A program made the translations under genes and the position numbers. Source: Escherichia phage EscoHU1. Taken from it: a stretch of DNA of 64,000 nt. Where the stretch lies: sequence record NC_133119.1; one strand, 5' to 3'. Positions 15,558 to 59,451 of this stretch are shown here, piece by piece (position 1 is the stretch's first letter; each line of letters starts with the position of its first letter). The notes under the pieces are model-generated. The model saw nothing but the letters and a program-made list of their open reading frames with translations, searched no databases and had not been told where the DNA came from.

Positions 15558-15989
15558 TTACCAATCGTTAACGAAACCTGAGAACTCAGAAGCAAATACT
15601 AACTCAAATTTCTCAGCAATTTCAGGATGATCCTTACAGATCAGTTCGATGCACTTCTCAGGTTCCATACCATCTTCTTCAGGATCACCGTAATACTTGT
15701 CCCAAAGATCATCAGGAATAACTTGCTCAGCTAGATCTTGGAAGTTCACTAACTGATAGCGTGGAGTATCCTCATTAATAAAGATCTCATGCAATTCCTC
15801 AGATACTTCTCCCTTATAATCGGAAATTAGCAGAGCATTGCAAGCAAAACATTCCCACATCATCAAACGCTCAGAAATCGGGTTCGATTTGTCTTGAACA
15901 TAGGACTGAAAGACTGCCTTAAAAGTAGATTTAACTTGCTCAAACTTATCTGCTGTTGCGATTAAAAGTGCTTTATCAATCTTTTGCAT
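15558..15989 (-). CDS. hypothetical protein
   Basis: 143 aa ORF. Confidence 0.5.
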   Translation of the reverse strand: MQKIDKALLIATADKFEQVKSTFKAVFQSYVQDKSNPISERLMMWECFACNALLISDYKGEVSEELHEIFINEDTPRYQLVNFQDLAEQVIPDDLWDKYYGDPEEDGMEPEKCIELICKDHPEIAEKFELVFASEFSGFVNDW

Positions 15990-16019
15990 TTTGATTCCTT
16001 CTCATCAATTTATAAAGTA

Positions 16020-16048
16020 ATTATACAGAAAACTAAGCATTTTAGCAA
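16020..16048 (-). promoter_or_regulatory. early sigma70 promoter (-35 TTGCTA, -10 TATAAT)
   Basis: 17-bp spacer. Confidence 0.7.
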
Positions 16049-16150
16049 ATGAAGTTTTAAAATAAAAGGCCTAAGCCTAGGCCCGTAAAGAAAGAGATAA
16101 GAACTACTATCCCTATTGCTATAAATATCTCACGAGCCATGCCATCAAAA

Positions 16151-19354: not shown

Positions 19355-19397
19355 TTGTGAAACTCCTCTGATTCAATTTATACAAATATTATATAAA

Positions 19398-19426
19398 AAT
19401 TTCAGCGGAAAGTCAACTACTTTTTT
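19398..19426 (-). promoter_or_regulatory. early sigma70 promoter (-35 TTGACT, -10 TATAAT)
   Basis: 17-bp spacer. Confidence 0.7.
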
Positions 19427-19429
19427 ATA

Positions 19430-19846
19430 TTAGTGTGCTTGATGTGGGAATCTCTTCCTAACTAAGTACATAGTTATTGGATATATTGAATACATAAGTA
19501 TAGGGGAGAAAAGGGTGAAATAAGCCGTGACTCCCCCAGCTAACATTAGTGGTATCAATGCTAGAGTAAGGGCCATAAGAATCATACCGAATGAGACAGC
19601 CAGGGCTACTGTGATGCAGTTCTCTAACTCCATCCAAAGCCAACAATATTTCGTATTCCTCTGGCAGTTGCATTTGCAAACGCCGAATGTGCCCATAATT
19701 ATATACTCTAGCCCATGAACGACTTTCTTTAATGTATCATTTTGGGTAACTAGTGCGACAACAGTGAGAATTATCATTAAGATGAAAATTACTAGGCTTA
19801 TTTTCCATATTCCTAGTAATATCATGGTGAATAGTTCTGCAAACAT
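19430..19846 (-). CDS. multi-pass membrane protein (Cys-rich loop)
   Basis: 138 aa, 3-4 TM segments. Confidence 0.45.
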   Translation of the reverse strand: MFAELFTMILLGIWKISLVIFILMIILTVVALVTQNDTLKKVVHGLEYIIMGTFGVCKCNCQRNTKYCWLWMELENCITVALAVSFGMILMALTLALIPLMLAGGVTAYFTLFSPILMYSIYPITMYLVRKRFPHQAH

Positions 19847-25812: not shown

Positions 25813-26020
25813 ACCACCAAGAACAAGAATCGCACAAGAAAATTTCTGTTTTCTCTATTGCCTGTCCAAGCAGTTCGTCTGCTTCATCTTCTGTAATTTT
25901 CAAACTACAAACATCAGCAACACGTTTAACAATCATTTTACCTGCTTCATGATAAGACATACAAGTCCCAACAACATCATGCTCAAGTACGTGAACAGCA
26001 CAGTCTAGTCGAGTTTTCAT
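25739..26020 (-). CDS. Cys-rich acidic protein
   Basis: 93 aa ORF. Confidence 0.45.
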   Translation of the reverse strand: MKTRLDCAVHVLEHDVVGTCMSYHEAGKMIVKRVADVCSLKITEDEADELLGQAIEKTEIFLCDSCSWWCEAHEHSFNDYDVCRDCKEDDEDE

Positions 26021-26050
26021 TTCAAAGCCCTCTCATCAATTTATATAAAT

Positions 26051-26079
26051 ATTATATCAAAAGGAGAGGGTTTTAGCAA
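26051..26079 (-). promoter_or_regulatory. early sigma70 promoter (-35 TTGCTA, -10 TATAAT)
   Basis: 17-bp spacer. Confidence 0.7.
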
Positions 26080-26096
26080 ATGAATTATTTACGAAA

Positions 26097-26736: not shown

Positions 26737-26761
26737 TTCGAAAATCCTACATACAAGAAAA

Positions 26762-26789
26762 CCCCAGACTACTTATTCAATAGCTGGGG
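26762..26789 (-). terminator. hairpin terminator (CCCCAG-loop-CTGGGG)
   Basis: T-runs on both sides. Confidence 0.5.
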
Positions 26790-26800
26790 TTTATTATTAA

Positions 26801-27100
26801 TTAGATAATTTCGACAATATCCTGAGTTACAAAACCGTCGAATTCATCAGAGATACCACCTGTAAAGGTGATGCCCATAATCATTGCATCCATCTTTTTA
26901 ATCTCCGAGATTTTCATACCTGCTTTACTATTCTTATAGTATTTGCGAGGATTCCCACACATCCAACAAGAACAGATGCAAGGAGTGGTAGTGATAATGC
27001 CTAACCGCTTAGGACTTTCTTCATGTGGGAAGACTGTCCAATACTTTTTGCGATTGTTTTTCACACGTTGCCGGTGATGGCGTCTTAATGCTCGATCCAC
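26801..27100 (-). CDS. hypothetical protein
   Basis: 99 aa ORF. Confidence 0.45.
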   Translation of the reverse strand: MDRALRRHHRQRVKNNRKKYWTVFPHEESPKRLGIITTTPCICSCWMCGNPRKYYKNSKAGMKISEIKKMDAMIMGITFTGGISDEFDGFVTQDIVEII

Positions 27101-27181: not shown

Positions 27182-27550
27182 TTATATCGCCTGAGTAAAT
27201 GTACGACTAATAACGTCGTTCTGTTGTTCACGCGTCAATGCGTTAAATCGAACAGCATAGCCAGAGACACGGATGGTCAACTGAGGATATTTTTCAGGAT
27301 GTTTCTGTGCATCCAAAAGCTGATCACGGCTTAACACATTGACATTTAGGTGCTGACCACCCTCGACTTGAGGAACCACTTCCACATCTACAATGCGAAA
27401 GGCCTCAGGGTCAAAGTGAGGTGTGATACCTTCTAGATCTTCGACTAGAACTTTCTGTTTAAGTTCACCATCTTTAGAATATAGTTGAATGATCTGATTG
27501 TTATGAACAATGTTAATTACGCCAGACTTAAGACTTTGATATGCTTTCAT
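27182..27550 (-). CDS. grcA: autonomous glycyl radical cofactor (GrcA/YfiD-like)
   Basis: 122 aa; C-terminus [12 protein letters not shown]...[20 protein letters not shown] matches glycyl-radical domain; T4 Y06I is an analogous phage case. Confidence 0.8.
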
Positions 27551-27922
27551 TAGATCTCCCTGATGTTAGAATTTGGCTCAGCTTTTTGTTAACCCAGAAG
27601 CAAGATAAAAACTGGAAGGCAGGCTTGCTTATTATCTAATCACTAGCTACTGTTGGGGTGCTAGCATTCCGGTGAGATTGATGGTCTCGATTAGATAAAT
27701 AAGCACTGGAACTTTGATTTTAACGTTGCGATCTTCCAGGTCTGTTGCAACTACGTGATTGCTCACGCTAAGACAATGGCTATCTAAAGCCCTAGCTTCT
27801 ACATTTATACTCCTGGATAGCATGGAGTTGCAGTCTACTTCCTGCTGTCACGCCCGGCCATTTATAGAATGTGGACTCTCTTCTCAGCAGGATCTGGTAC
27901 AATGACCTGATCCTCTGTTTAG

Positions 27923-27995
27923 TAGTTAGTAGTGGATTTGAACCACTGTAGTCACTCCGTATGAAGGAGGTGCATAACCACTCTGCCAACTAACT
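27923..27995 (-). tRNA. tRNA, anticodon CAU (Met or Ile2); CCA not encoded
   Basis: Manual fold: acceptor AGTTAGT/ACTAACT, T-loop TTCAAAT, loop TTCATAC. Confidence 0.65.
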
Positions 27996-28001
27996 ATAAT
28001 T

Positions 28002-28077
28002 TGGTACTCCGACTTGGGATCGAACCAAGATTTGACGATTATCGGTCGCCTGTTCTAACCGTTTGAACTATCGGAGC
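28002..28077 (-). tRNA. tRNA-Ile (GAU), tentative
   Basis: Acceptor GCTCCGA/TCGGAGT, CCA encoded; loop CCGATAA (C33 unusual). Confidence 0.6.
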
Positions 28078-28078
28078 A

Positions 28079-28372
28079 TTACATCATTTCGTCTAAGTAA
28101 GAGGTATACTGGTATTTAGCTTCTCCAGTTTTATCTACTTCGACTTCTGTTCTAGGTACTTTTCGTACCAGACCATGAATCATCTTATAGTTAATAGACT
28201 TAGATGGTTCGTGATCTTTTGGAAATACTTGTTTAACCGTTACTACTTTGAAGCCTTCACGAGGTGTTAGCACAACAACTTGATCACCCTCTTTGATTTT
28301 CCAAGACTCAGGAAATTCGTAAGTGTAGCGTTGACCACCCGTTTGGAATACGACAGAAAGATAACGTTTCAT
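28079..28372 (-). CDS. hypothetical protein
   Basis: 97 aa ORF downstream of promoter. Confidence 0.45.
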   Translation of the reverse strand: MKRYLSVVFQTGGQRYTYEFPESWKIKEGDQVVVLTPREGFKVVTVKQVFPKDHEPSKSINYKMIHGLVRKVPRTEVEVDKTGEAKYQYTSYLDEMM

Positions 28373-28402
28373 TTGGTTTCCCTCTCATTAATTTATATAA
28401 AT

Positions 28403-28431
28403 ATTATAACAAGAAATAAGAGAGAAGGCAA
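28403..28431 (-). promoter_or_regulatory. early sigma70 promoter (-35 TTGCCT, -10 TATAAT)
   Basis: 17-bp spacer. Confidence 0.6.
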
Positions 28432-28446
28432 ATGAATTTTTAAATT

Positions 28447-28521
28447 TGGTGCTCCCACCAGGAATCGAACCCGGTTCAGATGCTTACAAGGCAACTGCAT
28501 CGCCAGCAATGCTTTAGGAGC
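28447..28521 (-). tRNA. tRNA-Thr (UGU)
   Basis: Full cloverleaf, loop CTTGTAA, CCA encoded. Confidence 0.7.
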
Positions 28522-28688
28522 AATAAACCCGTTATTTCAACGGAATTTCTTTTTCAAATACAGGAGACTTATCAGACATTACTGTCATAGCCAACTGTTG
28601 TAAGAATTCGAAGGAGAGTTTTAAACGTTCTTCACCCAACTCAACCTCAACGCACTTCATTTGTTTATCTACCTTTAGCTTTAGATTA

Positions 28689-28910
28689 TCAGCCATCTTC
28701 GGGTTCTCTTTGCTCAGCTATTGCTAGCCAGTCTGGTAAAAGAAACTTAGTACGAAATTCCTCATATGTTTCTTCTGGATGAAAACTATAGCCTTGCTTT
28801 TCATCATTTAATAAAACCGAACCATCTTCTTGCTCATAAGCTCGATATGTTTCACCAATAATTAAAACTCGTCTATTAGGGTTTTTATTACGAAACTCAA
28901 AAACGTGCAT
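28689..28910 (-). CDS. hypothetical protein
   Basis: 73 aa ORF. Confidence 0.4.
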   Translation of the reverse strand: MHVFEFRNKNPNRRVLIIGETYRAYEQEDGSVLLNDEKQGYSFHPEETYEEFRTKFLLPDWLAIAEQREPEDG

Positions 28911-28926
28911 AACGTTTCCTTATATT

Positions 28927-29001
28927 TGGTGCGGGATACGAGAGTCGAACTCGTGTCTACTGGTTGGAAGCCAGTTATTCTAGCCACTGAACTAATCACG
29001 C
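28927..29001 (-). tRNA. tRNA-Gly (UCC)
   Basis: Loop CTTCCAA, T-loop TTCGACT, CCA encoded. Confidence 0.75.
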
Positions 29002-29007
29002 ATAAAT

Positions 29008-29083
29008 TGGCTGGAGAAGGAGGAATCGAACCTACCATTAACGGAGTCAAAGGCCGTTGTGCTAACCGTTACACTACTCTCCA
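29008..29083 (-). tRNA. tRNA-Gln (UUG)
   Basis: U1:A72, G73, loop CTTTGAC. Confidence 0.7.
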
Positions 29084-29089
29084 AGTATT

Positions 29090-29165
29090 TGGCTGGGATG
29101 CCACGGATCGAACGTGGGACCTTCGGAGTCAGAGGCCGACGATCTGCCAATTGATCTACATCCCA
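29090..29165 (-). tRNA. tRNA-Gln (CUG)
   Basis: U1:A72, G73, loop CTCTGAC. Confidence 0.7.
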
Positions 29166-29172
29166 ATAATTT

Positions 29173-29373
29173 TTATTCTACAGGAACCGTGGCAATTGGA
29201 TCTGGTTCTTCTAGACGTTTACCATTATGATCAACACGAATAATACCACAACCTTCACAGATTACAACAGCACCATAGCCTTCTTTAACTTCAGCTTCTG
29301 TAATCAGACCAGAAAGATCACCAGTATCTTTGCCCCACATATCGATAGAGCATTCTTTGCAGAAATCAGCCAT
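29173..29373 (-). CDS. small Cys-containing protein
   Basis: 66 aa ORF. Confidence 0.4.
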   Translation of the reverse strand: MADFCKECSIDMWGKDTGDLSGLITEAEVKEGYGAVVICEGCGIIRVDHNGKRLEEPDPIATVPVE

Positions 29374-29397
29374 ATTTTAGTTCCTATATAAGTTAAT

Positions 29398-29472
29398 TGG
29401 TGCATCCTCAGGGAATCGAACCCCGATCGTAAAGTTCGTAGCTTTACATTCTTTCCATTGAAATAAGGACGC
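29398..29472 (-). tRNA. tRNA-Arg (ACG)
   Basis: Anticodon stem TAAAG/CTTTA, loop CTACGAA. Confidence 0.75.
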
Positions 29473-29478
29473 AATATT

Positions 29479-29555
29479 TGGGGTGGCTAGTGGAATTCGA
29501 ATCCACATAGGCCTGATTCACAATCAGGATCATTAACCAATTATGATATAGCCAC
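29479..29555 (-). tRNA. tRNA-His (GUG)
   Basis: GTGGCTATA...TAGCCACCCCA closely matches E. coli tRNA-His ends; loop TTGTGAA. Confidence 0.85.
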
Positions 29556-29588
29556 AATTGAAAACTCGCAGGGTTAGCGAAACCATCC

Positions 29589-29768
29589 TCAAATAGCATT
29601 TTCTAGAATACTAATCAAGTTATCTTCTATTGCACGAAGCTCAAGACGAGTACGAATTTTCAATTGTGGCGGCTCTCCGAAACTCATCACACTAACAACT
29701 AGTTGATTACACCTGTATTCTCGCCCAGGAAATTCTCTAGAAAGGTGCACCGTTACTCTTTGAGCCAT
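29589..29768 (-). CDS. possible small protein (59 aa, below ORF-track cutoff)
   Basis: ATG..TGA frame found by hand; weak RBS. Confidence 0.25.
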   Translation of the reverse strand: MAQRVTVHLSREFPGREYRCNQLVVSVMSFGEPPQLKIRTRLELRAIEDNLISILENAI

Positions 29769-29774
29769 TGAATA

Positions 29775-29905
29775 TCAAGAAGCAGAAGGACTTGAACCTT
29801 CACGAGATAGACCATTTATCTCAGCCTCGTTTTCGGGTATCTTATGAGGAGTGGATGTTCCCCTTACGCCCTTTAGGAAGCCCCGTCTACCGATTCCGGC
29901 ATACT
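29775..29905 (-). other. tRNA-like element (class-II-type D-arm and T-arm but no closable acceptor stem); pseudogene or stable RNA
   Basis: GCCGGAATCGGTAGACGG and GAAGGTTCAAGTCCTTC arms about 85 nt apart. Confidence 0.3.
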
Positions 29906-29913
29906 TCAAGATT

Positions 29914-30003
29914 TGGCAGAAGATAATGGAGTCGAACCATCACCATATCACTACAGCGGGCCGGTTTTCAAGACCGGTTACGTACCACTACGTCCTATCT
30001 TCT
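29914..30003 (-). tRNA. tRNA-Ser (UGA)
   Basis: 90 nt with long variable arm; ACCGGTCTTGAAAACCGG as in E. coli tRNA-Ser; G73. Confidence 0.8.
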
Positions 30004-30358
30004 ATTGTTCGTATATTACAAAGTTTACAGATTCAGAGTAATAACCATTACTAGAACCATGCCATTTAACGGTTACACAGCCTTTAGCTGTGGCAAACTT
30101 ATACCATGTATGGGTTACTGAATCCCAATCTTCTGTAGCGTGTGTGATTACTTCCTCTGCTTCTATGATTGGATAACCTAAAAGGTCATGTAAATCACCA
30201 ATAATATCATCTATATGAACATCTTCACAGCAGTCCTGCTCATGATAAAACTTATAGTTCTTACCATCAGTACAAATGAAGATAAGAGTATCTTGGTCTT
30301 GGCATACACTAGTAAAAATTTTGCCAAGCATTTCATTATAGATTGTCACTTCTGACAT
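30002..30358 (-). CDS. hypothetical acidic protein
   Basis: 118 aa ORF. Confidence 0.45.
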   Translation of the reverse strand: MSEVTIYNEMLGKIFTSVCQDQDTLIFICTDGKNYKFYHEQDCCEDVHIDDIIGDLHDLLGYPIIEAEEVITHATEDWDSVTHTWYKFATAKGCVTVKWHGSSNGYYSESVNFVIYEQ

Positions 30359-30380
30359 ATTAGTTTCCTAGTAAGTTGTT

Positions 30381-30470
30381 TGGCGGAAGAAGAGAGATTC
30401 GAACTCTCAAGCCGTTTTACCAGTCAGCCACTTTCCAAGCGGTTTTCGTCACCTATCGATTTGCTCTTCC
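30381..30470 (-). tRNA. tRNA-Ser (GGA), tentative
   Basis: 90 nt, T-arm GAGAGTTCGAATCTCTC, G73, CCA; loop TTGGAAA; D-arm atypical. Confidence 0.55.
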
Positions 30471-30644
30471 GTAGATCTCAGGATTAAATCATAAACTTCA
30501 TTAGCGGATACTGGAAGTATGAGATTATACATCTTTTGGTCATACCTCTGACCATACTCTATAAACACATACTCTTTAGTTAATGTATTAACAGCTAACC
30601 AGATATCAGTTATAGGAGTTTTCATCATGAGTTAATCCAATGTT

Positions 30645-30725
30645 TGGTAGGGATGGAGGGACTCGAACCCACACCCGAAGACTAGAACCTAAATCTAGCG
30701 CGTCTGCCAATTTCGCCACATCCCC
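30645..30725 (-). tRNA. tRNA-Leu (UAG)
   Basis: Leu-type D-arm GCGAAATTGGCAGACGC; stem CTAGA/TCTAG, loop TTTAGGT. Confidence 0.7.
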
Positions 30726-30732
30726 ATTTTAT

Positions 30733-30951
30733 TTAGTTAGAAATAAATAGTAACCCTGCAACAATGGAACCTATGCCACTGAATACCATTATCAGCATAG
30801 CTTCTAAGCTGATAAAGCGGACGTTATATGGAGCGCCCCAAGAATAATCAGTAAAGAAAGTTTTCTTTTCTTTAGCTAAATCTTTAATAGTTCTAAAATA
30901 GATAGCTAGTGCTAAAGCTGCAAGAACTACAGAGGCTGCTAAGAATACCAT
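30733..30951 (-). CDS. small membrane protein
   Basis: 72 aa, two TM segments. Confidence 0.4.
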   Translation of the reverse strand: MVFLAASVVLAALALAIYFRTIKDLAKEKKTFFTDYSWGAPYNVRFISLEAMLIMVFSGIGSIVAGLLFISN

Positions 30952-30969
30952 ATTATTTCCTTAATTTGT

Positions 30970-31045
30970 TTGGTGGAGTCACTCAGAATTGAACTGAGTT
31001 CCACTGCTTGCAAGGCAGTAAGTTTAACCAAATAACCTATGACCC
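30970..31045 (-). tRNA. tRNA-Ala (UGC)
   Basis: G3:U70 pair, loop CTTGCAA, 3' end GACTCCACCA. Confidence 0.8.
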
Positions 31046-31050
31046 CGAAT

Positions 31051-31129
31051 TTGGTGGAGAATAAGAGATTCGAACTCTTCTGATATCCTCGGTGCAAGCG
31101 AGGTGTCCACTCCAAGCAGACCCATTCCC
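31051..31129 (-). tRNA. second tRNA with anticodon UGC (Ala-like, enlarged D-loop)
   Basis: 79 nt; G3:U70; loop CTTGCAC. Confidence 0.55.
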
Positions 31130-31392
31130 CAAAATCTTTAAGTTTACTAAGGCTATTAGCTCGGTGTGCGTATTACCCTCAGACATTAGCCAGTAGAGGA
31201 TAACCGCTCTTCACAAACCCGATACACTATTCAGTTGCCGCTGAATCTAGTGGACTAATCTAGAACTTATTGCAAAGTATCCCCCGCCATTAGGGGTCTA
31301 ATTGCAATTGTGCTTTTTGGCAGCCAGTCCTAGGTCGAGCTAATACCTTAGTGAACTTTGATGAGGATTTCTCCTCATCAATTTATATAAAT

Positions 31393-31421
31393 ATTATAAC
31401 AAGAAATTAAGCATCAAGCAA
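31393..31421 (-). promoter_or_regulatory. early sigma70 promoter (-35 TTGCTT, -10 TATAAT)
   Basis: 17-bp spacer. Confidence 0.7.
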
Positions 31422-31773
31422 GTACATTTTTAGCGATTTCTTGTAGTTCCTTAACGTCGCTAACGAAAAGGTAATCAGAGCTTCCAGAGTGCATACTCTG
31501 CATAACCACACCATCCTCTGGTGCATCTTCCTTCAAAGTAAGTCCTAACCAGAACTTGGCAAAACTAGGTGTTACCTCACCTTGACTTGCCTTGAACACA
31601 TCGCCTTCTGTGATCTCTTGACCAGTAGAGAGTCCCATGTACGGTACGTTCAGATCAATATCTTTGTAGAATTCAGCTAGATCTTGTTCGAAGTCCCAAC
31701 CTTTAGAGATAGCGAACTCCATTGTTACATGACCGAAATAGCCTTGAACCTTGCTTGATAATTGCATTTGCAA
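31414..31773 (-). CDS. hypothetical protein
   Basis: 119 aa ORF. Confidence 0.45.
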   Translation of the reverse strand: MQMQLSSKVQGYFGHVTMEFAISKGWDFEQDLAEFYKDIDLNVPYMGLSTGQEITEGDVFKASQGEVTPSFAKFWLGLTLKEDAPEDGVVMQSMHSGSSDYLFVSDVKELQEIAKNVLA

Positions 31774-31792
31774 TTCCTTATTTTGAGTTAAT

Positions 31793-31866
31793 TGGTACTC
31801 GGTGATAGAATCGAACTATCGCAACCGCCGTGTAAAGACGGGGTTCTCCCATTAAACTAACCGAGC
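31793..31866 (-). tRNA. tRNA-Val (UAC)
   Basis: Stem CCGTC/GGCGG, loop TTTACAC, CCA encoded. Confidence 0.7.
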
Positions 31867-31999
31867 AAAAGACGTCCTATAATATAGGCTTCAACTACAA
31901 ATTCACAGAAACCTGCTAAAAACATACCTATTGTAAAATCGGCAGAGAATACATAGGAATCTTTTATTTTCTGCTTCATTAAGTAAAACCAGATAGTCA

Positions 32000-32317
32000 T
32001 TAAAATCTCTCCATTCTAAAGCCAATGAAGTAAGGTGCATTACATGGAACATGCTTAAGATCTTTAAGAGTAATTTTACGTCCTAAGCGTCGTTCCATAC
32101 AAGTGAAACATAGAACAATATCTTTGGGCTGCTCTTTTCTTATCTGATCCCATACCCAATCTTCAACCATACACATTTCATGGTATTGTTCACAGTCTCG
32201 ACAATAATGACACTGATGTTCTGGTACTTTTTGATTTTTAATACACAGTTCAGTAAAGCGTTTTCCTGCTCTGCCAGACATTTCTGATATTGTTTCTAGA
32301 ACTTTGTTAATATTCAT
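32000..32317 (-). CDS. Cys-rich zinc-finger-like protein
   Basis: 105 aa; CHYCRDC and CFTC motifs. Confidence 0.45.
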   Translation of the reverse strand: MNINKVLETISEMSGRAGKRFTELCIKNQKVPEHQCHYCRDCEQYHEMCMVEDWVWDQIRKEQPKDIVLCFTCMERRLGRKITLKDLKHVPCNAPYFIGFRMERF

Positions 32318-32334
32318 AACAAATTCCTTTAAAT

Positions 32335-32412
32335 TGGTTGACCGTCTGGGATTCGAACCCAGAACCTACGAGGTAAAAGCTCGGTACTCTTATCCAGTTG
32401 AGTTAACGGTCA
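32335..32412 (-). tRNA. tRNA-Lys (UUU)
   Basis: Loop CTTTTAC; T-arm CTGGGTTCGAATCCCAG. Confidence 0.7.
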
Positions 32413-32600
32413 ATTTAATACATGTATACTTCTTTAATAGAGTAGACTTTCAAGTAAGGATGATTAATACCAAATTCCGCCATCACTTCGTTTTCATCTT
32501 TACCGTAGTGCGCTAGTGGATACTTCTTACGATCTTTGCTAGAACGTAAATCACTTACCTTTAAACGAAATAATTTCATTTCGAAATCCTTCTATTAAAT

Positions 32601-32678
32601 TGGAAGCGGGTGCAGGAATCGAACCTACCTCTTTCTAGCTTATGAGACTAGCGATCTCTACCAGAGATCTAACCCGCA
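32601..32678 (-). tRNA. tRNA, anticodon CAU (Met/fMet/Ile2), 1:72 mismatch
   Basis: Loop CTCATAA; acceptor position 1 unpaired. Confidence 0.6.
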
Positions 32679-32684
32679 ATTATT

Positions 32685-32761
32685 TGGTCTCCAATGAAGG
32701 ACTCGAACCTTCAACCCCACCGCCCCAAACGGTGTACTCTAGCCAATTGAGCTAATCGGAG
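32685..32761 (-). tRNA. tRNA-Pro (UGG)
   Basis: C1:G72, stem CACCG/CGGTG, loop TTTGGGG. Confidence 0.8.
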
Positions 32762-32793
32762 AATATTCTTTGTTAACTCACTTTATAAAATAT

Positions 32794-32822
32794 ATTATAC
32801 AGACATTTAAGTATAATAGCAA
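32794..32822 (-). promoter_or_regulatory. early sigma70 promoter (-35 TTGCTA, -10 TATAAT) preceding tRNA-Pro
   Basis: 17-bp spacer. Confidence 0.7.
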
Positions 32823-32978
32823 ATGAGTTTTTAATAAATTTACTTATTGCGTAGGCCACCTGGAGGGTTCAAGCCCCACGGCTGACAAAGAAGTTTGCGA
32901 GACTTCTCTTAAATGCCAGAATAGACCCGCCGATCTATCGGAACCTACTCGATAAGTAAACTTTCATTTACTTACTTA

Positions 32979-33365
32979 TTATGTGCTGTGTATTTCTCGA
33001 TGACAATTCGCACACACTAAAATACATTTCTGTAATTCTTCTCTCAGCTTATCCCTGGAAATACCAGAGGATCTGAATTGACTAATATTATAGTCTTTTG
33101 AGTTTTCATCAATATGATGAAAATCCAGAGCTTGTTTGCATTTATTATACCCACAAATAGAACATTCTAATATAGGGAAGTATTCTGCAATAATAGAATC
33201 AACAGTTTCACGTCTTTTTGCATTTTCGCTAATCTTACATGTTGGCTTCCACTTTTGTTTACCCGAGGGATATATTCCATTAGTATAGAAATATTCCTTG
33301 GTTAGTGGGTGTTCCACACCACAGTTTTTACAAAACTTGTATTCCATAGCTCCTCGAACAGTCAA
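32979..33365 (-). CDS. HNH homing endonuclease
   Basis: 128 aa; DFHHIDENSKDYN...CANCHREIH. Confidence 0.7.
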   Translation of the reverse strand: MTVRGAMEYKFCKNCGVEHPLTKEYFYTNGIYPSGKQKWKPTCKISENAKRRETVDSIIAEYFPILECSICGYNKCKQALDFHHIDENSKDYNISQFRSSGISRDKLREELQKCILVCANCHREIHST

Positions 33366-33483
33366 TCTAGGCAGGACTTGAACCTGCTATCACTTGTGCG
33401 GATTTACGAGAACCATTCTTTCACTCGAATCGAACGAGCTTCTACCCTCGGCAAGCTGGTGCCCCCTCTCCACCACGCTAGAA
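33366..33483 (-). other. tRNA-like element with two T-arm-like hairpins, no canonical cloverleaf
   Basis: GCAGGTTCAAGTCCTGC and GCTCGTTCGATTCGAGT on minus strand. Confidence 0.25.
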
Positions 33484-33491
33484 TGTTTATT

Positions 33492-33567
33492 TGGTACACC
33501 CACTAGGACTTGAACCTAGAACCCTCCGCTTAAGAGGCGGTAGCTCTAACCATTGAGCTATGGATGT
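33492..33567 (-). tRNA. tRNA-Lys (CUU), tentative
   Basis: D-stem GCTC/GAGC, loop CTCTTAA, A73. Confidence 0.55.
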
Positions 33568-33678
33568 ATATTAGTCCATTGTACATCTACAAAAGAAACC
33601 CCATTTACCGCAGTGTGGACACTGTCCTCCAGAGTTTCTAGCAAAGGATTTGAACTTCATTCAACACTCCTTTAAAGT

Positions 33679-33755
33679 TGGCGCGACCGATGGGATTCGA
33701 ACCCACATTCTCTCCCGTGACAGGGGAGTACCATTACCAAGCCAGCCCCGATCGC
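33679..33755 (-). tRNA. tRNA-Asp (GUC)
   Basis: Stem CTCCC/GGGAG, loop CTGTCAC, G73. Confidence 0.8.
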
Positions 33756-33764
33756 ATAATTTGT

Positions 33765-33950
33765 TTACTCAGCTTTGAGTTTTTCGATAGCTTCCTTAAC
33801 CTCTTTTAGAGCTTCACGACGTGCATTCTGTTGCTGCATATCTTGTATTAACGTCAGTTTTTGGTTTTCAATTTCTTGATCCCAGACCTTAATATTATTA
33901 ATTAGATTATCACGATCAGCTTCTAGTCGAGCAATTGCACGAGTTGTCAT
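33765..33950 (-). CDS. small coiled-coil protein
   Basis: 61 aa ORF. Confidence 0.4.
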   Translation of the reverse strand: MTTRAIARLEADRDNLINNIKVWDQEIENQKLTLIQDMQQQNARREALKEVKEAIEKLKAE

Positions 33951-33977
33951 ATCTATTTCCTCAGTTGTTAATGAAAT

Positions 33978-34060
33978 TGGCGGGCCGTGTAGGATTCGAA
34001 CCTACGTTGTCTTTCGACATGGATTAACAGTCCACCGCCAAACCGCTTGGCTAACGACCC
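33978..34060 (-). tRNA. tRNA-Asn (GUU) with 13-nt variable arm
   Basis: Anticodon arm TGGACTGTTAATCCA as E. coli tRNA-Asn; G73; 83 nt. Confidence 0.65.
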
Positions 34061-34067
34061 TAAAATT

Positions 34068-34143
34068 TGGACGACCGCATGAGATTCGAACTCACATAAG
34101 GAGGTTTTGCAGGCCTCCGCCTAAGCCATTCAGCCAACGGTCG
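34068..34143 (-). tRNA. tRNA-Cys (GCA)
   Basis: Loop CTGCAAA, U73, 3' end GTCGTCCA. Confidence 0.7.
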
Positions 34144-34321
34144 ATTTATCTTGTTTTTCGAGATCAACGAACTCTAAATCGTTGAAGTCTCCTAGAGTAC
34201 GGGAGTAATAACCGTCTCCAGCATCATAGCCTGATTTACCACACTTACACATCTTAAACTCACGTAGACGTGTAAAGATATGTTCAGAGCCACAACACTT
34301 AAATTTAACTAACTTTTTCAT
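34130..34321 (-). CDS. small zinc-ribbon-like protein
   Basis: 63 aa; CxGS...CKC; 3' end overlaps tRNA-Cys by about 14 nt. Confidence 0.35.
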   Translation of the reverse strand: MKKLVKFKCCGSEHIFTRLREFKMCKCGKSGYDAGDGYYSRTLGDFNDLEFVDLEKQDKSTVG

Positions 34322-34560
34322 CCAACACGCTCCGGTAAATCTTCGAGTTTATATTGAGTAGCCACATTAGCAGCATCTAGTAACAAACCCATATGTTTAA
34401 GAATTCTAGTGATAGCCTCGCCTTCTGCTTCTTCTACAAAGCAACGTAGTTGCATGAAGTCAATACCACCATCCATACCAGAGAAAATGTTAAGTAAGCG
34501 AAGCATTACCAGCTTACGTTCTTTTAATTCTTGTTCTGTCATGTTGCTTCTCCAGTTCAA
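34318..34560 (-). CDS. hypothetical protein
   Basis: 80 aa ORF. Confidence 0.4.
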   Translation of the reverse strand: MNWRSNMTEQELKERKLVMLRLLNIFSGMDGGIDFMQLRCFVEEAEGEAITRILKHMGLLLDAANVATQYKLEDLPERVG

Positions 34561-34571
34561 TTTATGTAATA

Positions 34572-34600
34572 ATTATACAGAACTTTAAGCGGTTAAGCAA
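34572..34600 (-). promoter_or_regulatory. early sigma70 promoter (-35 TTGCTT, -10 TATAAT)
   Basis: 17-bp spacer. Confidence 0.7.
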
Positions 34601-34880
34601 CTACATTTTTCAGAAATATGATGCCTTTCTTTTTCTTCTTATATTTCCATGTTAATGGATTCTGTCGATTATGAACGCTTGAGATCTTTGTCTCGTCAAA
34701 GTTCTTCAGTACCATGTAATCACAGGCCAACTGTTCCAGTGGGATGTGATCTCCGTCAAAAGCATAAACATAAGGCTGTTGACTGGCACGATAATGATAT
34801 ACTTTGTTAATTCTGCGTTTCAGTGACTTATCCGCACAGTAAATAAAGAAGTTTTCAGGATGCATCAGCATCTCCTTCAA
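34593..34880 (-). CDS. hypothetical protein
   Basis: 95 aa ORF. Confidence 0.4.
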   Translation of the reverse strand: MKEMLMHPENFFIYCADKSLKRRINKVYHYRASQQPYVYAFDGDHIPLEQLACDYMVLKNFDETKISSVHNRQNPLTWKYKKKKKGIIFLKNVVA

Positions 34881-34882
34881 AT

Positions 34883-34957
34883 TGGTGCACCCCGTTGGTA
34901 ACGATCCAACCTCTCAAGCTCTTCAGGCAAGCGCTAATCCATCTCAGCTAAAGGTGC
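34883..34957 (-). tRNA. tRNA-Phe-like (GAA), two U-U mismatches in anticodon stem, non-canonical T-loop
   Basis: Acceptor GCACCTT/GGGGTGC + ACCA; loop CTGAAGA; T-loop ATCGTTA. Confidence 0.5.
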
Positions 34958-34963
34958 AAATAT

Positions 34964-35043
34964 TGGCAAACCTACTAGGACTCGAACCTAGACCGTACGG
35001 TTTTGGAGACCGACATGCTGTCCAGTAACACTCTAGGGATGCA
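34964..35043 (-). tRNA. tRNA-Trp-like (CCA), 5' acceptor strand does not pair
   Basis: TCGGTCTCCAAAACCGT arm, T-arm, G73-CCA like E. coli tRNA-Trp; 5' half aberrant. Confidence 0.4.
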
Positions 35044-35048
35044 GAAAT

Positions 35049-35125
35049 TGGCGTCCTGTGCGGGGATCGAACCCGCAAATCCTACCTTGAAAGGGTAGTG
35101 ACTTTACCAGTTTGTCTAACAGGAC
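35049..35125 (-). tRNA. tRNA-Glu (UUC)
   Basis: GTCCTGT...ACAGGACGCCA ends, loop CTTTCAA. Confidence 0.8.
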
Positions 35126-35132
35126 TTAAATT

Positions 35133-35223
35133 TGGTGTTGGATGATGGAGTCGAACCACCCGAGACCCTTCCGAGTCGGCAGATTTACAGTCTGCTTCGC
35201 TACCTCTACGATACTAATCCAAC
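35133..35223 (-). tRNA. tRNA-Tyr (GUA)
   Basis: 91 nt; anticodon arm GCAGACTGTAAATCTGC identical to E. coli tRNA-Tyr. Confidence 0.85.
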
Positions 35224-35348
35224 ATATTTGAATGAAAAGTAAGTCGGTTAAACTCAAGGTGGAATATTTCAGGAAATCCTGACTTTACCCCTAAAAGCAA
35301 CTCGCTTAGTTACTTCTCATTCAGATATGTTTTCCAAATTAGATAACT

Positions 35349-35377
35349 ATTATACCAAGTTTTGAAGGACTGAGCAA
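35349..35377 (-). promoter_or_regulatory. early sigma70 promoter (-35 TTGCTC, -10 TATAAT) preceding tRNA-Tyr
   Basis: 17-bp spacer. Confidence 0.6.
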
Positions 35378-35413
35378 GTCAAATTTTAAAGAACTTGCTC
35401 AGTGCTATATCAG

Positions 35414-35689
35414 TTACTCGAAGCTAGGAGTGACACTCAGTTTGAATGGAAGCTCGAACACTTCTTCATAATCATCATTGAGCGTAATTACACGACCTTC
35501 TAGCTTAGTCATGGTGATTTCGATATCAGCCCTTGCATCAGGAGCCATACCAGCTTCCACACATTTAGCTTTGACTTCCGGCAGAAGTTCTACATCGTAG
35601 AAATAAAGCCATTCAATCTCACCCTCCCAGCCACCCCAGGATTTACAAACAGCACTTTCAACACCAGTTGCAGTAACACGTTTTGACAT
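35414..35689 (-). CDS. hypothetical acidic protein
   Basis: 91 aa ORF. Confidence 0.45.
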   Translation of the reverse strand: MSKRVTATGVESAVCKSWGGWEGEIEWLYFYDVELLPEVKAKCVEAGMAPDARADIEITMTKLEGRVITLNDDYEEVFELPFKLSVTPSFE

Positions 35690-35719
35690 TCGTTAACCCC
35701 TTCATCAATTTATATAACT

Positions 35720-35749
35720 ATTATATCAGAAATCTTAAGTAAAAAGCAA
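35720..35749 (-). promoter_or_regulatory. early sigma70 promoter (-35 TTGCTT, 18 bp, -10 TATAAT)
   Basis: Hexamers read on minus strand. Confidence 0.65.
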
Positions 35750-35779
35750 GTACATTTTTAAAATTTCTGCTTGGAGGAG

Positions 35780-36052
35780 TTAAACTCCTGATTCTTCAGC
35801 CAGATCAAGCCCAACCAACGTGATTGCCATAATAGCTGCGCCATGTTCTTTCTCTCCTAGCTCTTTGGCTTGAGTGAGAATATTGAGGAATTGCTTTTGA
35901 AAATCTGCAACTTCTTCTGTCATGCCTGCTTCAGCAATAATTCCTTTCAGCATAAAGCGTTGTGCTGTAATTTCAGGATTAGCCATTTGTTTTCTCCAGT
36001 TATTTAGAATGTAAGCCAAACTTAGGATCATAGCGATCGTAAGTCGTACCAT
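35780..36052 (-). CDS. hypothetical protein
   Basis: 90 aa ORF. Confidence 0.45.
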   Translation of the reverse strand: MVRLTIAMILSLAYILNNWRKQMANPEITAQRFMLKGIIAEAGMTEEVADFQKQFLNILTQAKELGEKEHGAAIMAITLVGLDLAEESGV

Positions 36053-36137
36053 TAGTTGAAGCCTTGATGCTATGAAAACGACAGTACATAAATTTACGTA
36101 GTGCTTTCTTAATAGCTTTCATTTTATTTCCTTAATT

Positions 36138-36214
36138 TGGTAGGGGTGGTGGGATTCGAACCCACAAAACCCGAATTTTAAGTCCGGTACCTATGCCAAT
36201 TCGATTACACCCCC
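36138..36214 (-). tRNA. tRNA with anticodon UAA (Leu by anticodon) in class-I frame
   Basis: 77 nt; stem CCGGA/TTCGG, loop CTTAAAA, 5-nt variable loop. Confidence 0.6.
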
Positions 36215-36223
36215 ATGTAATCT

Positions 36224-36571
36224 TTAGAGTTCGTAACCCTGAATATATCGAGCAAAACCAGTAATCTCGAACTGAATTGCCCATGCTACTTCCATATGCT
36301 CAATCTTACTAAAATGAGCGTCAGACTGTTCTAGGAAATAACGAGAGATTATAGGGAACTCAATGTCAAAATCTTCCTTATCCATACCATAGAAGAAGTT
36401 TCCAGAAATATTACGAACTTCACGAAAGAAATCCTCAATCTGAAAATCCATCAGAGGATAAGTATATTCCTCTTTGCTATCATCCGTTTGGAAGAAGCGG
36501 AAATGCACAAGGCAAGAGCCAATCAGATTTACTGCTGGAGTAGTGTAAATATCCATGTTAACCTCGATCAA
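36224..36571 (-). CDS. hypothetical acidic protein
   Basis: 115 aa ORF. Confidence 0.45.
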   Translation of the reverse strand: MIEVNMDIYTTPAVNLIGSCLVHFRFFQTDDSKEEYTYPLMDFQIEDFFREVRNISGNFFYGMDKEDFDIEFPIISRYFLEQSDAHFSKIEHMEVAWAIQFEITGFARYIQGYEL

Positions 36572-36743
36572 TATCTAGAGAAATTCCAAATTCTGGATTA
36601 ATACCAGAACCATTACATGCTGCACATTCCCACTCTTCAAAACGCATATCGCCAGGTTCAGCATCATTAATAGTACCTGTTCCATGGCAGTGAGCACACA
36701 TGCACTCTTCTAGTTCTTGTTTAAGCTCTTGAAACTTAGACAT
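36558..36743 (-). CDS. small Cys-rich protein
   Basis: 61 aa; CAHCHGTG...CAACNGSG. Confidence 0.4.
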   Translation of the reverse strand: MSKFQELKQELEECMCAHCHGTGTINDAEPGDMRFEEWECAACNGSGINPEFGISLDIDRG

Positions 36744-36760
36744 ATAGTCTCCTAGTTAAT

Positions 36761-36838
36761 TGGTGGCTCCCGGAGGATTCGAACCTACCTACCTTTCGCT
36801 TATGAGGCGACGGCTCATACCAAATGAGCTTGAGAACC
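36761..36838 (-). tRNA. tRNA, anticodon CAU (third CAU species)
   Basis: Acceptor GGTTCTC/GGGAGCC, loop CTCATAA, CCA encoded. Confidence 0.65.
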
Positions 36839-36843
36839 AAATT

Positions 36844-36915
36844 TGGAGGAAGATGCCAGACTCGAACTGGCACACCGTGTCTCCACAGCTACTGGCTGTT
36901 TAGCAAACAGCTCCC
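36844..36915 (-). other. tRNA-like element (T-arm, acceptor, CCA) with truncated anticodon region
   Basis: GCCAGTTCGAGTCTGGC + ATCTTCC-T-CCA; only about 16 nt between D-arm and T-arm. Confidence 0.3.
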
Positions 36916-36951
36916 TTACCTTTAGGGTTAATCTTCCAAATTTATGAATAT

Positions 36952-44851: not shown

Positions 44852-44882
44852 ATTTCGCTTCCTCTCATTAATTTATGAAAGT

Positions 44883-44911
44883 ATTATACAGAAATTTAAG
44901 TCTTTAAGCAA
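44883..44911 (-). promoter_or_regulatory. early sigma70 promoter (-35 TTGCTT, -10 TATAAT)
   Basis: 17-bp spacer. Confidence 0.7.
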
Positions 44912-44919
44912 TCGAATTT

Positions 44920-45387
44920 TTAAGTTTTCTTAACCACAGGCTTATAGAACGTATGACCTTGAATCTTCGTTGTTTTCTTAAACTTCTTTGTCCAGTACGG
45001 TTTATCTTTACCACTATGAAAGTATAACGCTCCATGTGTTGGATCTTGTGGTAAATCAACGTAGTATATCACTCTAGCTAAATTCTTAGCAACTTGCCAA
45101 GCCTCATCGGTTTTATCAACTTTTGGTCTCTTGGCCACCCAAGAGAACTGGTTAGACTGATATACTACTTTACAGTAAGAATCAGGAAAAGTACCAGAGT
45201 TAACACGGTTTTTAGTAACCTGTGCAACTGCGATCATTCCTTTAGTGCCCTCACCTCGTGCTTCGAAGTAGATGTTTTTTGCAATGCAATCAATCTGCTT
45301 TGAGTCGTAGGTCGCATGACTATTGAAGCTATAGGTTAGGGCAGCTATTAAAAGCAAAGCTGCCTTCATTTTATTTACTCCGGCCAA
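44920..45387 (-). CDS. secreted cell-wall hydrolase (SleB/CwlJ-like)
   Basis: 155 aa; signal peptide; YFEARGEG...AVAQVTKNR. Confidence 0.55.
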   Translation of the reverse strand: MAGVNKMKAALLLIAALTYSFNSHATYDSKQIDCIAKNIYFEARGEGTKGMIAVAQVTKNRVNSGTFPDSYCKVVYQSNQFSWVAKRPKVDKTDEAWQVAKNLARVIYYVDLPQDPTHGALYFHSGKDKPYWTKKFKKTTKIQGHTFYKPVVKKT

Positions 45388-48856: not shown

Positions 48857-48894
48857 TATTTGTTTTCCTTTTTGTTGATCAATTTATGAGATAT

Positions 48895-48923
48895 ATTATA
48901 CGAAATTTTGAAGCGTTTAGCAA
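48895..48923 (-). promoter_or_regulatory. early sigma70 promoter (-35 TTGCTA, -10 TATAAT)
   Basis: 17-bp spacer. Confidence 0.7.
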
Positions 48924-48939
48924 ATGAATTTTTTAAAAA

Positions 48940-49218
48940 TTATCTGCCGATCATCTTAGCTTGTTCCTCACTGGAAACGTACTGATAACCACCCTTGTTA
49001 TATGCAGGAGCAGTACACAGTTTCTTGCGCTCAATTTCTTCTTGAGCTTTGCGTTCCCTTTCGGCTAATTCTTCATCTAGGTAAACTAGACGTTGCTCCG
49101 GAGGTGGTGGAAGCCTAGTTTCTGGCTCACCAATATTTGCCTTTCTGATCTGACGCGGAGATTGTGCGCGTTTTCTCAAAGGTTTAAATCCTAATGAGTT
49201 TGAGTTGTAAATTCGCAT
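48940..49218 (-). CDS. hypothetical protein
   Basis: 92 aa ORF. Confidence 0.4.
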   Translation of the reverse strand: MRIYNSNSLGFKPLRKRAQSPRQIRKANIGEPETRLPPPPEQRLVYLDEELAERERKAQEEIERKKLCTAPAYNKGGYQYVSSEEQAKMIGR

Positions 49219-55715: not shown

Positions 55716-56477
55716 TTACACCTTCCCCATATCCTTAAAGATATCGTAGAATGCTTTAGACTCTGGTGAGCGAACGTTGTCGATCAGTTCGATCATAGAG
55801 AAAGGGGAGTTTTCGTACTTCTCATAGACTTCCATAAGAAGTGCTAGACCTGAATCACCCTTGATGTCTTTCTGAGCTATATCCCCACAGATAATTAAAC
55901 GACAATCTTGTCCTACACGAGTCAAGAGACAGACCATTGCTTCAACGGAGATATTCTGAGCTTCATCGACAATTACATAGGAGTTGTTGAAAGTTCGGCC
56001 ACGGGCGTGTTCGATAGCCAGGAATTTGATTTTCTGACGTTCGACATATCCTTTGTAGGCGTGATCACCGATTGCCCATTTCATGCCATCGGCTATTGGT
56101 TCCAACCAAGGCTCTAGCTTTTCTGCTAGATCACCTGGGAGCATACCAAGAGATTTACCTAGAGGTTCGTTCGGACGCACGAGGATCACTTGCTCAATAT
56201 CTGAGTGAATGTCTACGAGTTCCTGAGCTGCAAGAACGGATGGGATAAAGGTTTTACCAGTACCTGGTTCACCGATACCCACAGTCACTGTGTTATTCTT
56301 GATCATATTGATATATGATTTTTGCTCACAGTTTTTACCAACTAGGGATTTAGCAACTGGATTGGCATAATCACCAGAGAAATCTGCTTGAATTACGTTA
56401 CTCTCGTACTTGTTGCCACGCTTTCTTGAACCATTGCGGTTCTCTCTTTTTTGACGTGCTTTTCCCATAAATAACAC
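55716..56477 (-). CDS. phoH: PhoH-like ATPase
   Basis: 253 aa; P-loop GEPGTGKT and PhoH-type downstream motifs. Confidence 0.8.
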   Translation of the reverse strand: MLFMGKARQKRENRNGSRKRGNKYESNVIQADFSGDYANPVAKSLVGKNCEQKSYINMIKNNTVTVGIGEPGTGKTFIPSVLAAQELVDIHSDIEQVILVRPNEPLGKSLGMLPGDLAEKLEPWLEPIADGMKWAIGDHAYKGYVERQKIKFLAIEHARGRTFNNSYVIVDEAQNISVEAMVCLLTRVGQDCRLIICGDIAQKDIKGDSGLALLMEVYEKYENSPFSMIELIDNVRSPESKAFYDIFKDMGKV

Positions 56478-59288: not shown

Positions 59289-59451
59289 TTTAGAAAATAT
59301 GCTTATGGAGCAGTGGAATGCTGGGTATAATGCTGGAGTAGCTACCTGTATTGCTGGTTTGGATATGCTTATTAAGCAAGAGAAGGTTCGCCCAGAAGAA
59401 GCAATTCTGCTCCAAAATATCATCGAAGGATTCAAGCAAGGAATCGTATAA
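59257..59451 (+). CDS. hypothetical protein
   Basis: GGAGG RBS then ATG; stop overlaps Sir2-like start. Confidence 0.4.
   Translation: MDFLNQNLKSNLENMLMEQWNAGYNAGVATCIAGLDMLIKQEKVRPEEAILLQNIIEGFKQGIV

Follow-up and report, generated by a model that had tools for sequence, protein, structure and literature searches.

A T5-type phage member of the autonomous glycyl radical cofactor family, with host pyruvate formate-lyase as its probable client

Small proteins that serve as spare parts for glycyl radical enzymes have been described in Escherichia coli and in phage T4. Wagner (2001), as cited in PMC8683613, found that YfiD and T4 Y06I take a glycyl radical from the activating enzyme of pyruvate formate-lyase (PFL) and restore oxygen-cleaved PFL in vitro. 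YfiD, also named GrcA, and Y06I are the only validated spare parts (PMC8683613), and a 2026 review knows of spare parts for formate lyases only (PMC13450708). GrcA also restores formate production to full-length PflB-G734A in vivo (PMC12338860, Table 1).

E. coli GrcA/YfiD (6owr; TIGR04365; IPR011140) is a small standalone protein whose C-terminal domain mimics PFL residues ~698-759. Its residues 1-60 are disordered by NMR, yet both the binding of cleaved PFL and efficient installation of the radical depend on them (PMC8683613). The presence of this family in coliphages has been known since 2001. T4 vs.6, the gene for Y06I, and T5.056 of phage T5 both belong to phrog_1209, which is labelled "unknown function", and a 2025 functional-genomics re-annotation gives both genes as "unknown function" as well (PMC11879866). 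A literature search for a T5-type GrcA or for T5.056 found no papers. Here we describe the T5.056 ortholog of Escherichia phage EscoHU1 and compare it with these systems.

Family identity, naming and origin of the gene

The window, by which we mean the whole 64,000-nucleotide stretch of sequence record NC_133119.1 that was analysed, contains an ATG-initiated ORF that fills exactly the interval listed for the GrcA-like gene in Table 1, stop codon included. The size of its product is that of a small standalone protein (~115-130 aa) with its own ribosome-binding site and stop codon, and not that of a domain of a large enzyme; the same ribosome-binding site is annotated at the equivalent position in the record of Salmonella phage Seabear. 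The 7 kb around the gene are 99.6% identical to Seabear and to Salmonella phage Stitch (Demerecviridae, Epseptimavirus), and the ortholog in the reference T5 genome, T5.056, carries a glycine-radical-domain annotation.

Table 1. Coordinates of the GrcA-like gene, its parts, its transcription unit and nrdD in the window
Feature	Position	Strand	Remarks
GrcA-like autonomous glycyl-radical protein	27182-27550	-	122 aa; T5.056 ortholog; PHROG 1209
Conserved N-terminal module, aa 1-40	27431-27550	-	four-stranded beta meander predicted; probable diverged counterpart of GrcA N-terminal region
Variable linker, aa 41-62	27365-27430	-	most variable columns; dN/dS 0.134
Glycyl-radical domain, aa 63-122	27185-27364	-	includes radical hairpin and the beta-strand duplicating PFL's retained strand
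Gly97 codon GGC, predicted radical-bearing glycine	27260-27262	-	aligns with PflB Gly734 / GrcA Gly102
Shine-Dalgarno GGAG	27556-27559	-	5 nt 5' of ATG; read from sequence
Likely promoter, equivalent of T5 early promoter P11	28403-28431	-	TTGCCT-17-TATAAT, extended -10 TG; scan 10/12
ORF between P11-like promoter and tRNAs	28079-28372	-	
tRNA-Met and tRNA-Ile	27922-28077	-	ARAGORN, Rfam; upstream in the GrcA-like gene's transcription unit
99-aa Cys-rich ORF	26801-27100	-	T5.055 homolog, phrog_4499; downstream of GrcA-like gene; last before terminator
Intrinsic terminator	26755-26792	-	GC-rich hairpin and U-tract; -21.8 kcal/mol, z=-4.1
NrdD, class III anaerobic ribonucleotide reductase	56821-58695	+	PF13597 573 bits; 54% identity to E. 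coli NrdD; outside the GrcA-like unit

The protein matches the Pfam Gly_radical model (PF01228) at aa 62-103 with E=4e-18, in agreement with a sequence-only reading of this DNA that had recognized a small protein ending in a glycyl-radical domain. Comparison with solved structures retrieved E. coli GrcA/YfiD (E=2e-29) and PFL residues 698-758 (E=1.6e-26), with far weaker matches to other glycyl radical enzymes (E 1e-12 or worse). By BLASTP the protein shares 74% identity with E. coli GrcA across aa 51-122 (E=1e-37) and 57% with the end of PflB across 97 residues (E=1e-32). The phrog_1209 profile is matched over its full length (E=7.2e-47), with aa 1-122 falling on profile positions 1-121 of 121. 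The T4-like homologs, encoded by vs.6 and named "autonomous glycyl radical cofactor", are likewise full-length matches at ~50% identity. The GrcA-like identity proposed in the same reading was confirmed. Like the GrcA-like protein, Y06I is phage-encoded and ~120 aa long, starts with MKAYQ, has a two-module layout and carries an identical radical loop and PFL-type strand; of the T4 and T5-type proteins, it is the one that has been tested biochemically.

The NCBIfam equivalog model for GrcA, TIGR04365, aligned to aa 54-121 with 118.3 bits, below its cutoff of 170, because the N-terminal half of the phage protein has diverged. Since this model was built for bacterial GrcA, the phage protein should be called a family relative and not a bacterial-type equivalog. 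By these sequence relationships, the gene encodes the T5-type representative of the GrcA/YfiD/Y06I family of autonomous glycyl radical cofactors. It is of an already known kind, represented by T5.056 and T4 Y06I, and the finding is not new: the annotation of T5.056 and many records that already name the gene "autonomous glycyl radical cofactor" predate this analysis.

Other records use a variety of names, including 'ribonucleotide reductase subunit' (Stitch, LVR16A, YZU-L1), 'formate acetyltransferase' (Seabear), 'pyruvate formate-lyase', '2-ketobutyrate formate-lyase', 'acetyltransferase' and 'hypothetical protein'. The formate acetyltransferase label is wrong because the protein has neither the catalytic barrel of that ~760-aa ten-stranded enzyme nor its Cys418/Cys419, in which it differs from both PflB and TdcE; the pyruvate formate-lyase/formate acetyltransferase model TIGR01255 scored 84 bits against a cutoff of 994 and was matched at profile positions 683-743 of 744 and no more. 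A ribonucleotide reductase subunit (NrdD or NrdG) was also rejected: the protein has no detectable similarity to the phage NrdD by BLASTP (E=16) and, containing no cysteine, has no CxxxCxxC activase motif. The correct uniform name for the gene is "autonomous glycyl radical cofactor (GrcA-like)".

Homologs were found by tblastn in 1,582 phage records, of which ~440 are T5-likes at 80% identity or above, and a protein database search added further homologs in jumbo enterobacterial phages and in Vibrio phages. The ORF and its ribosome-binding site are intact in hundreds of genomes.

We also considered where the T5-type gene came from. Its DNA is 71-74% identical to grcA, pflB and tdcE, and no more. 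Identity to the host genes at third codon positions is 27-30/60, which is saturated, and the gene's GC content (41%) is that of the phage (40%). The saturated third positions and matching GC therefore point to an old, ameliorated resident, and recent capture from a host is ruled out by the DNA divergence and the phage-like GC. The T4-like phage AR1 differs in this respect. The radical domain encoded by its vs.6 is identical to that of E. coli GrcA at 60/60 residues, compared with 48/60 for the long-ameliorated T5-type domain, and the last 185 nt of the gene match E. coli K-12 grcA at 182/185 positions (98%). The matching stretch starts precisely where the radical domain does (…EGGQ) and runs to the stop codon, and the N-terminal half is phage-type; the AR1 radical domain thus looks like a recent host-derived cassette exchange.

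Radical domain, N-terminal module and selection

The sequence-only reading had staked its proposal on retention of the radical-bearing glycine, and alignment bore this out: Gly97 lies within an intact RVSGYAV fingerprint, is invariant across 61 sequences, and is surrounded by a segment, R94-N103, that is identical in all of them. An alignment of ten sequences (phage, GrcA and PflB) has 44 invariant columns between E63 and T119. Both the radical loop and the strand that inserts into PFL are identical in YfiD and PFL. Over its 60 residues the domain shares 47 with PflB, 48 with GrcA and 51 with TdcE (78-85%), with the same hairpin and helices as the PflB and TdcE C-termini. The homologs from jumbo enterobacterial phages (SE_PL/K64-1 type) and Vibrio phages, which belong to different phage families, have the closest radical domains among those compared (51-52/60).

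An AlphaFold2 (AF2) model of the protein, with a mean pLDDT of 76.7, places the strands of the radical hairpin at residues 92-95 and 98-101 and flanking helices at 75-83 and 107-117; residues 61-71, which make up most of the PFL-inserting strand, are of low confidence. The model matches the NMR structure of GrcA, and a Foldseek search with it retrieved YfiD 6owr (E=2.6e-5) and PFL 2pfl. In the Foldseek overlays a core of 41-44 residues also superposes on other glycyl radical enzymes at sub-1.5 Å.

The radical domain differs from that of host PflB at 13 of its 60 positions; the validated T4 protein, in contrast, matches host GrcA at 60/60, and compatibility of the T5-type protein with host PFL is therefore an assumption on our part. 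Together with the diverged N-terminal module, these 13 substitutions leave room for altered behaviour, and a protein of this kind might act as a decoy or inhibitor that soaks up PflA, or occupies PFL without catalysis, to redirect pyruvate flux or lower formate; nothing direct favours this. However, the activase-recognition loop and the PFL-inserting strand are conserved at every residue, and most of the substitutions affect sites that already vary between GrcA and PflB. In addition, the T4 homolog restores activity and does not block it (PMC8683613). We regard a decoy as very unlikely.

A second question is which formate lyase the protein would serve. The C-terminal 60 residues are closest to TdcE, and in the tail that follows Gly97 (aa 101-122; 27185-27250, minus strand) 20 of 22 residues are identical to E. 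coli TdcE, compared with 16/22 for PflB and 15/22 for GrcA. The spare-part mechanism could thus be the same but tuned to TdcE, the 2-ketobutyrate/pyruvate formate-lyase, rather than to PflB, as the name '2-ketobutyrate formate-lyase' used by some annotators would have it. The margin over the whole domain is, however, 3-4 residues in 60, and the first half of the domain is nearer to GrcA than to TdcE. PflB is also far more abundant than TdcE. Tuning to TdcE seems unlikely to us; TdcE also has PFL activity and is itself a client of PflA, so one target does not exclude the other.

The N-terminal ~50 residues gave no pairwise or NCBIfam alignment to bacterial GrcA. We looked at this segment with profile-profile comparisons. 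The T5-type segment compared directly with bacterial GrcA by hhalign gave a probability of 20% over the last 14 residues only. Its match to the corresponding segments of other phages reached 96% (E=2.9e-9) over nearly the full length, with a 7-residue insertion, and those segments matched bacterial GrcA at 98.4% (E=5.6e-15). The insertion, DGELKQK, sets the T5-type N-terminus apart from the T4-like and other phage proteins; the jumbo enterobacterial and Vibrio phage proteins have an alignable N-terminal module without it. The profiles thus suggest that the N-terminal half is linked to bacterial GrcA by transitive homology and that the protein is a strongly diverged family member over its whole length. 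The same transitive homology argues against a chimera of a novel N-terminus and a captured PFL tail.

In the AF2 model, residues 2-36 are predicted to form a four-stranded beta module (pLDDT 82-88), for which Foldseek returned nothing significant. YfiD has been reported to be disordered in its N-terminus, in contrast to this predicted order, and because the YfiD disorder is experimental we treat order in the T5-type module as a lead and not as a result.

Among 33 T5-like orthologs, aa 1-40 are almost invariant, nearly matching the radical domain, and variation is mostly about aa 41-62. The window protein is 94% identical to T5.056, at a dS of 0.58 and an overall dN/dS of 0.058; by part, dN/dS is 0.024 in the N-terminal module (aa 1-40), 0.134 in the linker (aa 41-62) and 0.014 in the radical domain (aa 63-122). 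The gene is under strong purifying selection in both modules. These values refute a relic without function, derived from a captured 3' end of pflB or grcA, a reading that could otherwise appeal to the dispensability of the gene in a laboratory knock-down screen (PMC11879866). The ORF and ribosome-binding site preserved across genomes, and homology to GrcA that seems to run the full length and is not that of a fragment, also argue against it, and we consider a relic practically out of the question.

Transcription unit

In T5 the annotated order is P11, T5.058, tRNA-Ile, T5.057, tRNA-Met, T5.056, T5.055 and a rho-independent terminator, and this layout is kept in the window (Table 1). The P11-like site lies within a segment that is 88% identical to the T5 region with annotated P11, and the terminator is homologous to the one annotated after T5.055. 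Upstream of the GrcA-like gene, 27 tRNA genes predicted by ARAGORN and interspersed small ORFs occupy 27922-36937, all on the minus strand, and the gene sits at the 3' edge of this region. Based on the gene order and the homologous T5 promoter, we infer that the GrcA-like gene is probably expressed early, by read-through from the P11-like promoter.

The P11-like site belongs to a ~60-75 nt repeat (28384-28441, minus strand) that matches the annotated T5 early promoters P11 and P13b and the promoter upstream of T5.053. Similar copies are present near 26015-26089, 31374-31407, 35695-35771, 15983-16061, 19365-19439, 44852-44927 and 48878-48942. As judged from their sequences, these are evidently promoter cassettes dispersed through the early region.

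The spacer between tRNA-Met and the GrcA-like gene is 371 nt of non-coding DNA (27551-27921, minus strand), compared with 13 nt in T5. In some T5-likes, mainly Epseptimavirus-type Salmonella phages, most or all of the spacer is kept at 79-100% identity, and it is also present in Yersinia phage phiR2-01 (79%). A search for structured RNA in the spacer gave no Rfam match at E<=1 besides the flanking tRNAs, and its fold has z=-2.0; the spacer might represent a degenerate tRNA or the remnant of a stable RNA. We also considered a dedicated promoter within the spacer. The sole site, at 27592-27563, scores 9/12 and was rejected because transcription would begin inside or past the Shine-Dalgarno sequence; we take it as a chance match.

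The ORF that lies downstream of the GrcA-like gene encodes a protein very basic at its N-terminus, with a cysteine cluster, CICSCWMCGNPRK, that formally fits CxxxCxxC. Despite this fit, its 99 residues are far too few for a radical-SAM enzyme, and no Pfam domain matched it. A functional link between this ORF and the GrcA-like gene found no support: its homologs are mostly confined to T5-likes and are absent from the T4-likes that carry vs.6. Weak matches to it are present in some jumbo phages.

Relation to NrdD and a proposed role in infection

The sequence-only reading had also pointed to a phage NrdD, encoded alongside the small protein, and proposed that the spare part rescues oxygen-damaged NrdD or host PFL. 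The NrdD is real (Table 1). The two genes do share a genome, but they are not neighbours: they lie 29 kb apart, on opposite strands and in different transcription units. Nothing positional or transcriptional links the GrcA-like gene to nrdD. Other genes accompany nrdD itself, namely a Sir2-family protein (PF02146, E=1e-21) at 59451-60302 (plus strand) in the operon downstream and, upstream, an ORF at 55716-56477 (minus strand) whose near-identical equivalent in Seabear bears the annotation 'phosphate starvation inducible protein' (PhoH-like).

For the proposed rescue, the two clients fared differently. If the GrcA-like protein were a spare part for phage NrdD cleaved by oxygen at its radical glycine, it would fit that the Pfam Gly_radical superfamily model picks up both proteins and that both genes, in one genome, are for anaerobic metabolism; the authors of PMC8683613 also speculate that spare parts for other glycyl radical enzymes may exist. 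Pairwise similarity between the two proteins is nevertheless lacking, and R-V-x-G-Y alone is common to them around the radical glycine. The GrcA-like protein lacks both the CGEC...CPIC zinc ribbon and the RRVCGYLG loop found at the C-terminus of NrdD, and NrdG would have to accept a PFL-type loop. The radical domain instead resembles PFL-type C-termini, the only kind for which spare parts are known, and the sequence comparisons suggest that it is built to replace a PFL-type C-terminus and not that of NrdD. Rescue of NrdD is not supported, and we consider it highly improbable. Host PFL, the other proposed client, is plausible given the 78-85% domain identity and the biochemical validation of T4 Y06I (PMC8683613). 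By this homology to a biochemically validated phage protein, host PFL as the client is well supported.

We searched for a phage-encoded activase. No PflA or NrdG homolog was found by tblastn of the E. coli proteins against the window and Seabear 63601-112472 (E ~0.5 or worse), and a six-frame scan of the window for ORFs of at least 80 aa found no activase-sized ORF with CxxxCxxC. When PflA was compared with all phages by tblastn, most of the matches were to NrdG from T4-likes and other large myoviruses; T4 has its own NrdG, unlike the T5-type phage. With no phage homolog of PflA or NrdG, NrdD and the GrcA-like protein would have to rely on host activases: host NrdG would serve NrdD, and host PflA the GrcA-like protein.

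We favour, as the likely reading, a spare-part protein that is radicalized by host PflA and restores host PFL during infection. The gene would be transcribed together with the early genes of the tRNA region, and within the RVSGYAV loop Gly97 would receive its radical from host PflA. The 60-residue radical domain would insert into host PflB, or possibly TdcE, whose own domain has been cut by oxygen or was never activated, with the conserved N-terminal module docking to the damaged enzyme as YfiD residues 1-60 do. Gly97 would then hand the radical to PFL Cys419, so that pyruvate's conversion into acetyl-CoA and formate, and with it fermentative ATP, is restored. T5 degrades host DNA early, according to a preprint (bioRxiv 10.64898/2026.04.02.716235), and an infected cell would therefore be unable to replace PflB or induce grcA, a reason for the phage to have its own version. 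The benefit to the phage would arise where an infected cell in the gut, under fluctuating oxygen, can make no new PflB or GrcA.

In a dCas13d knock-down screen under standard laboratory infection, both T4 vs.6 and T5.056 are scored as "Not Fit", meaning no defect (PMC11879866). This result fits a conditional role under fluctuating oxygen and is not positive evidence for one.

In a variant of the spare-part reading, the T5-type protein would be a GrcA of shifted function, with different or broader clients (TdcE, or undamaged PflB that has not been activated), or one that sustains fermentative ATP after loss of host DNA. We mention this because the N-terminal module is constrained and possibly ordered, with a lineage-specific insertion, and because the tail is TdcE-like; on balance we find it doubtful, if worth keeping in mind. 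If it were true, the gene would be a true auxiliary metabolic gene whose loss would be visible only in anaerobic or microaerobic infection. Because T5-type phages carry NrdD and GrcA without an activase and destroy host DNA early, they offer a clean system in which to ask whether phages maintain the anaerobic energy metabolism of their hosts in the gut.
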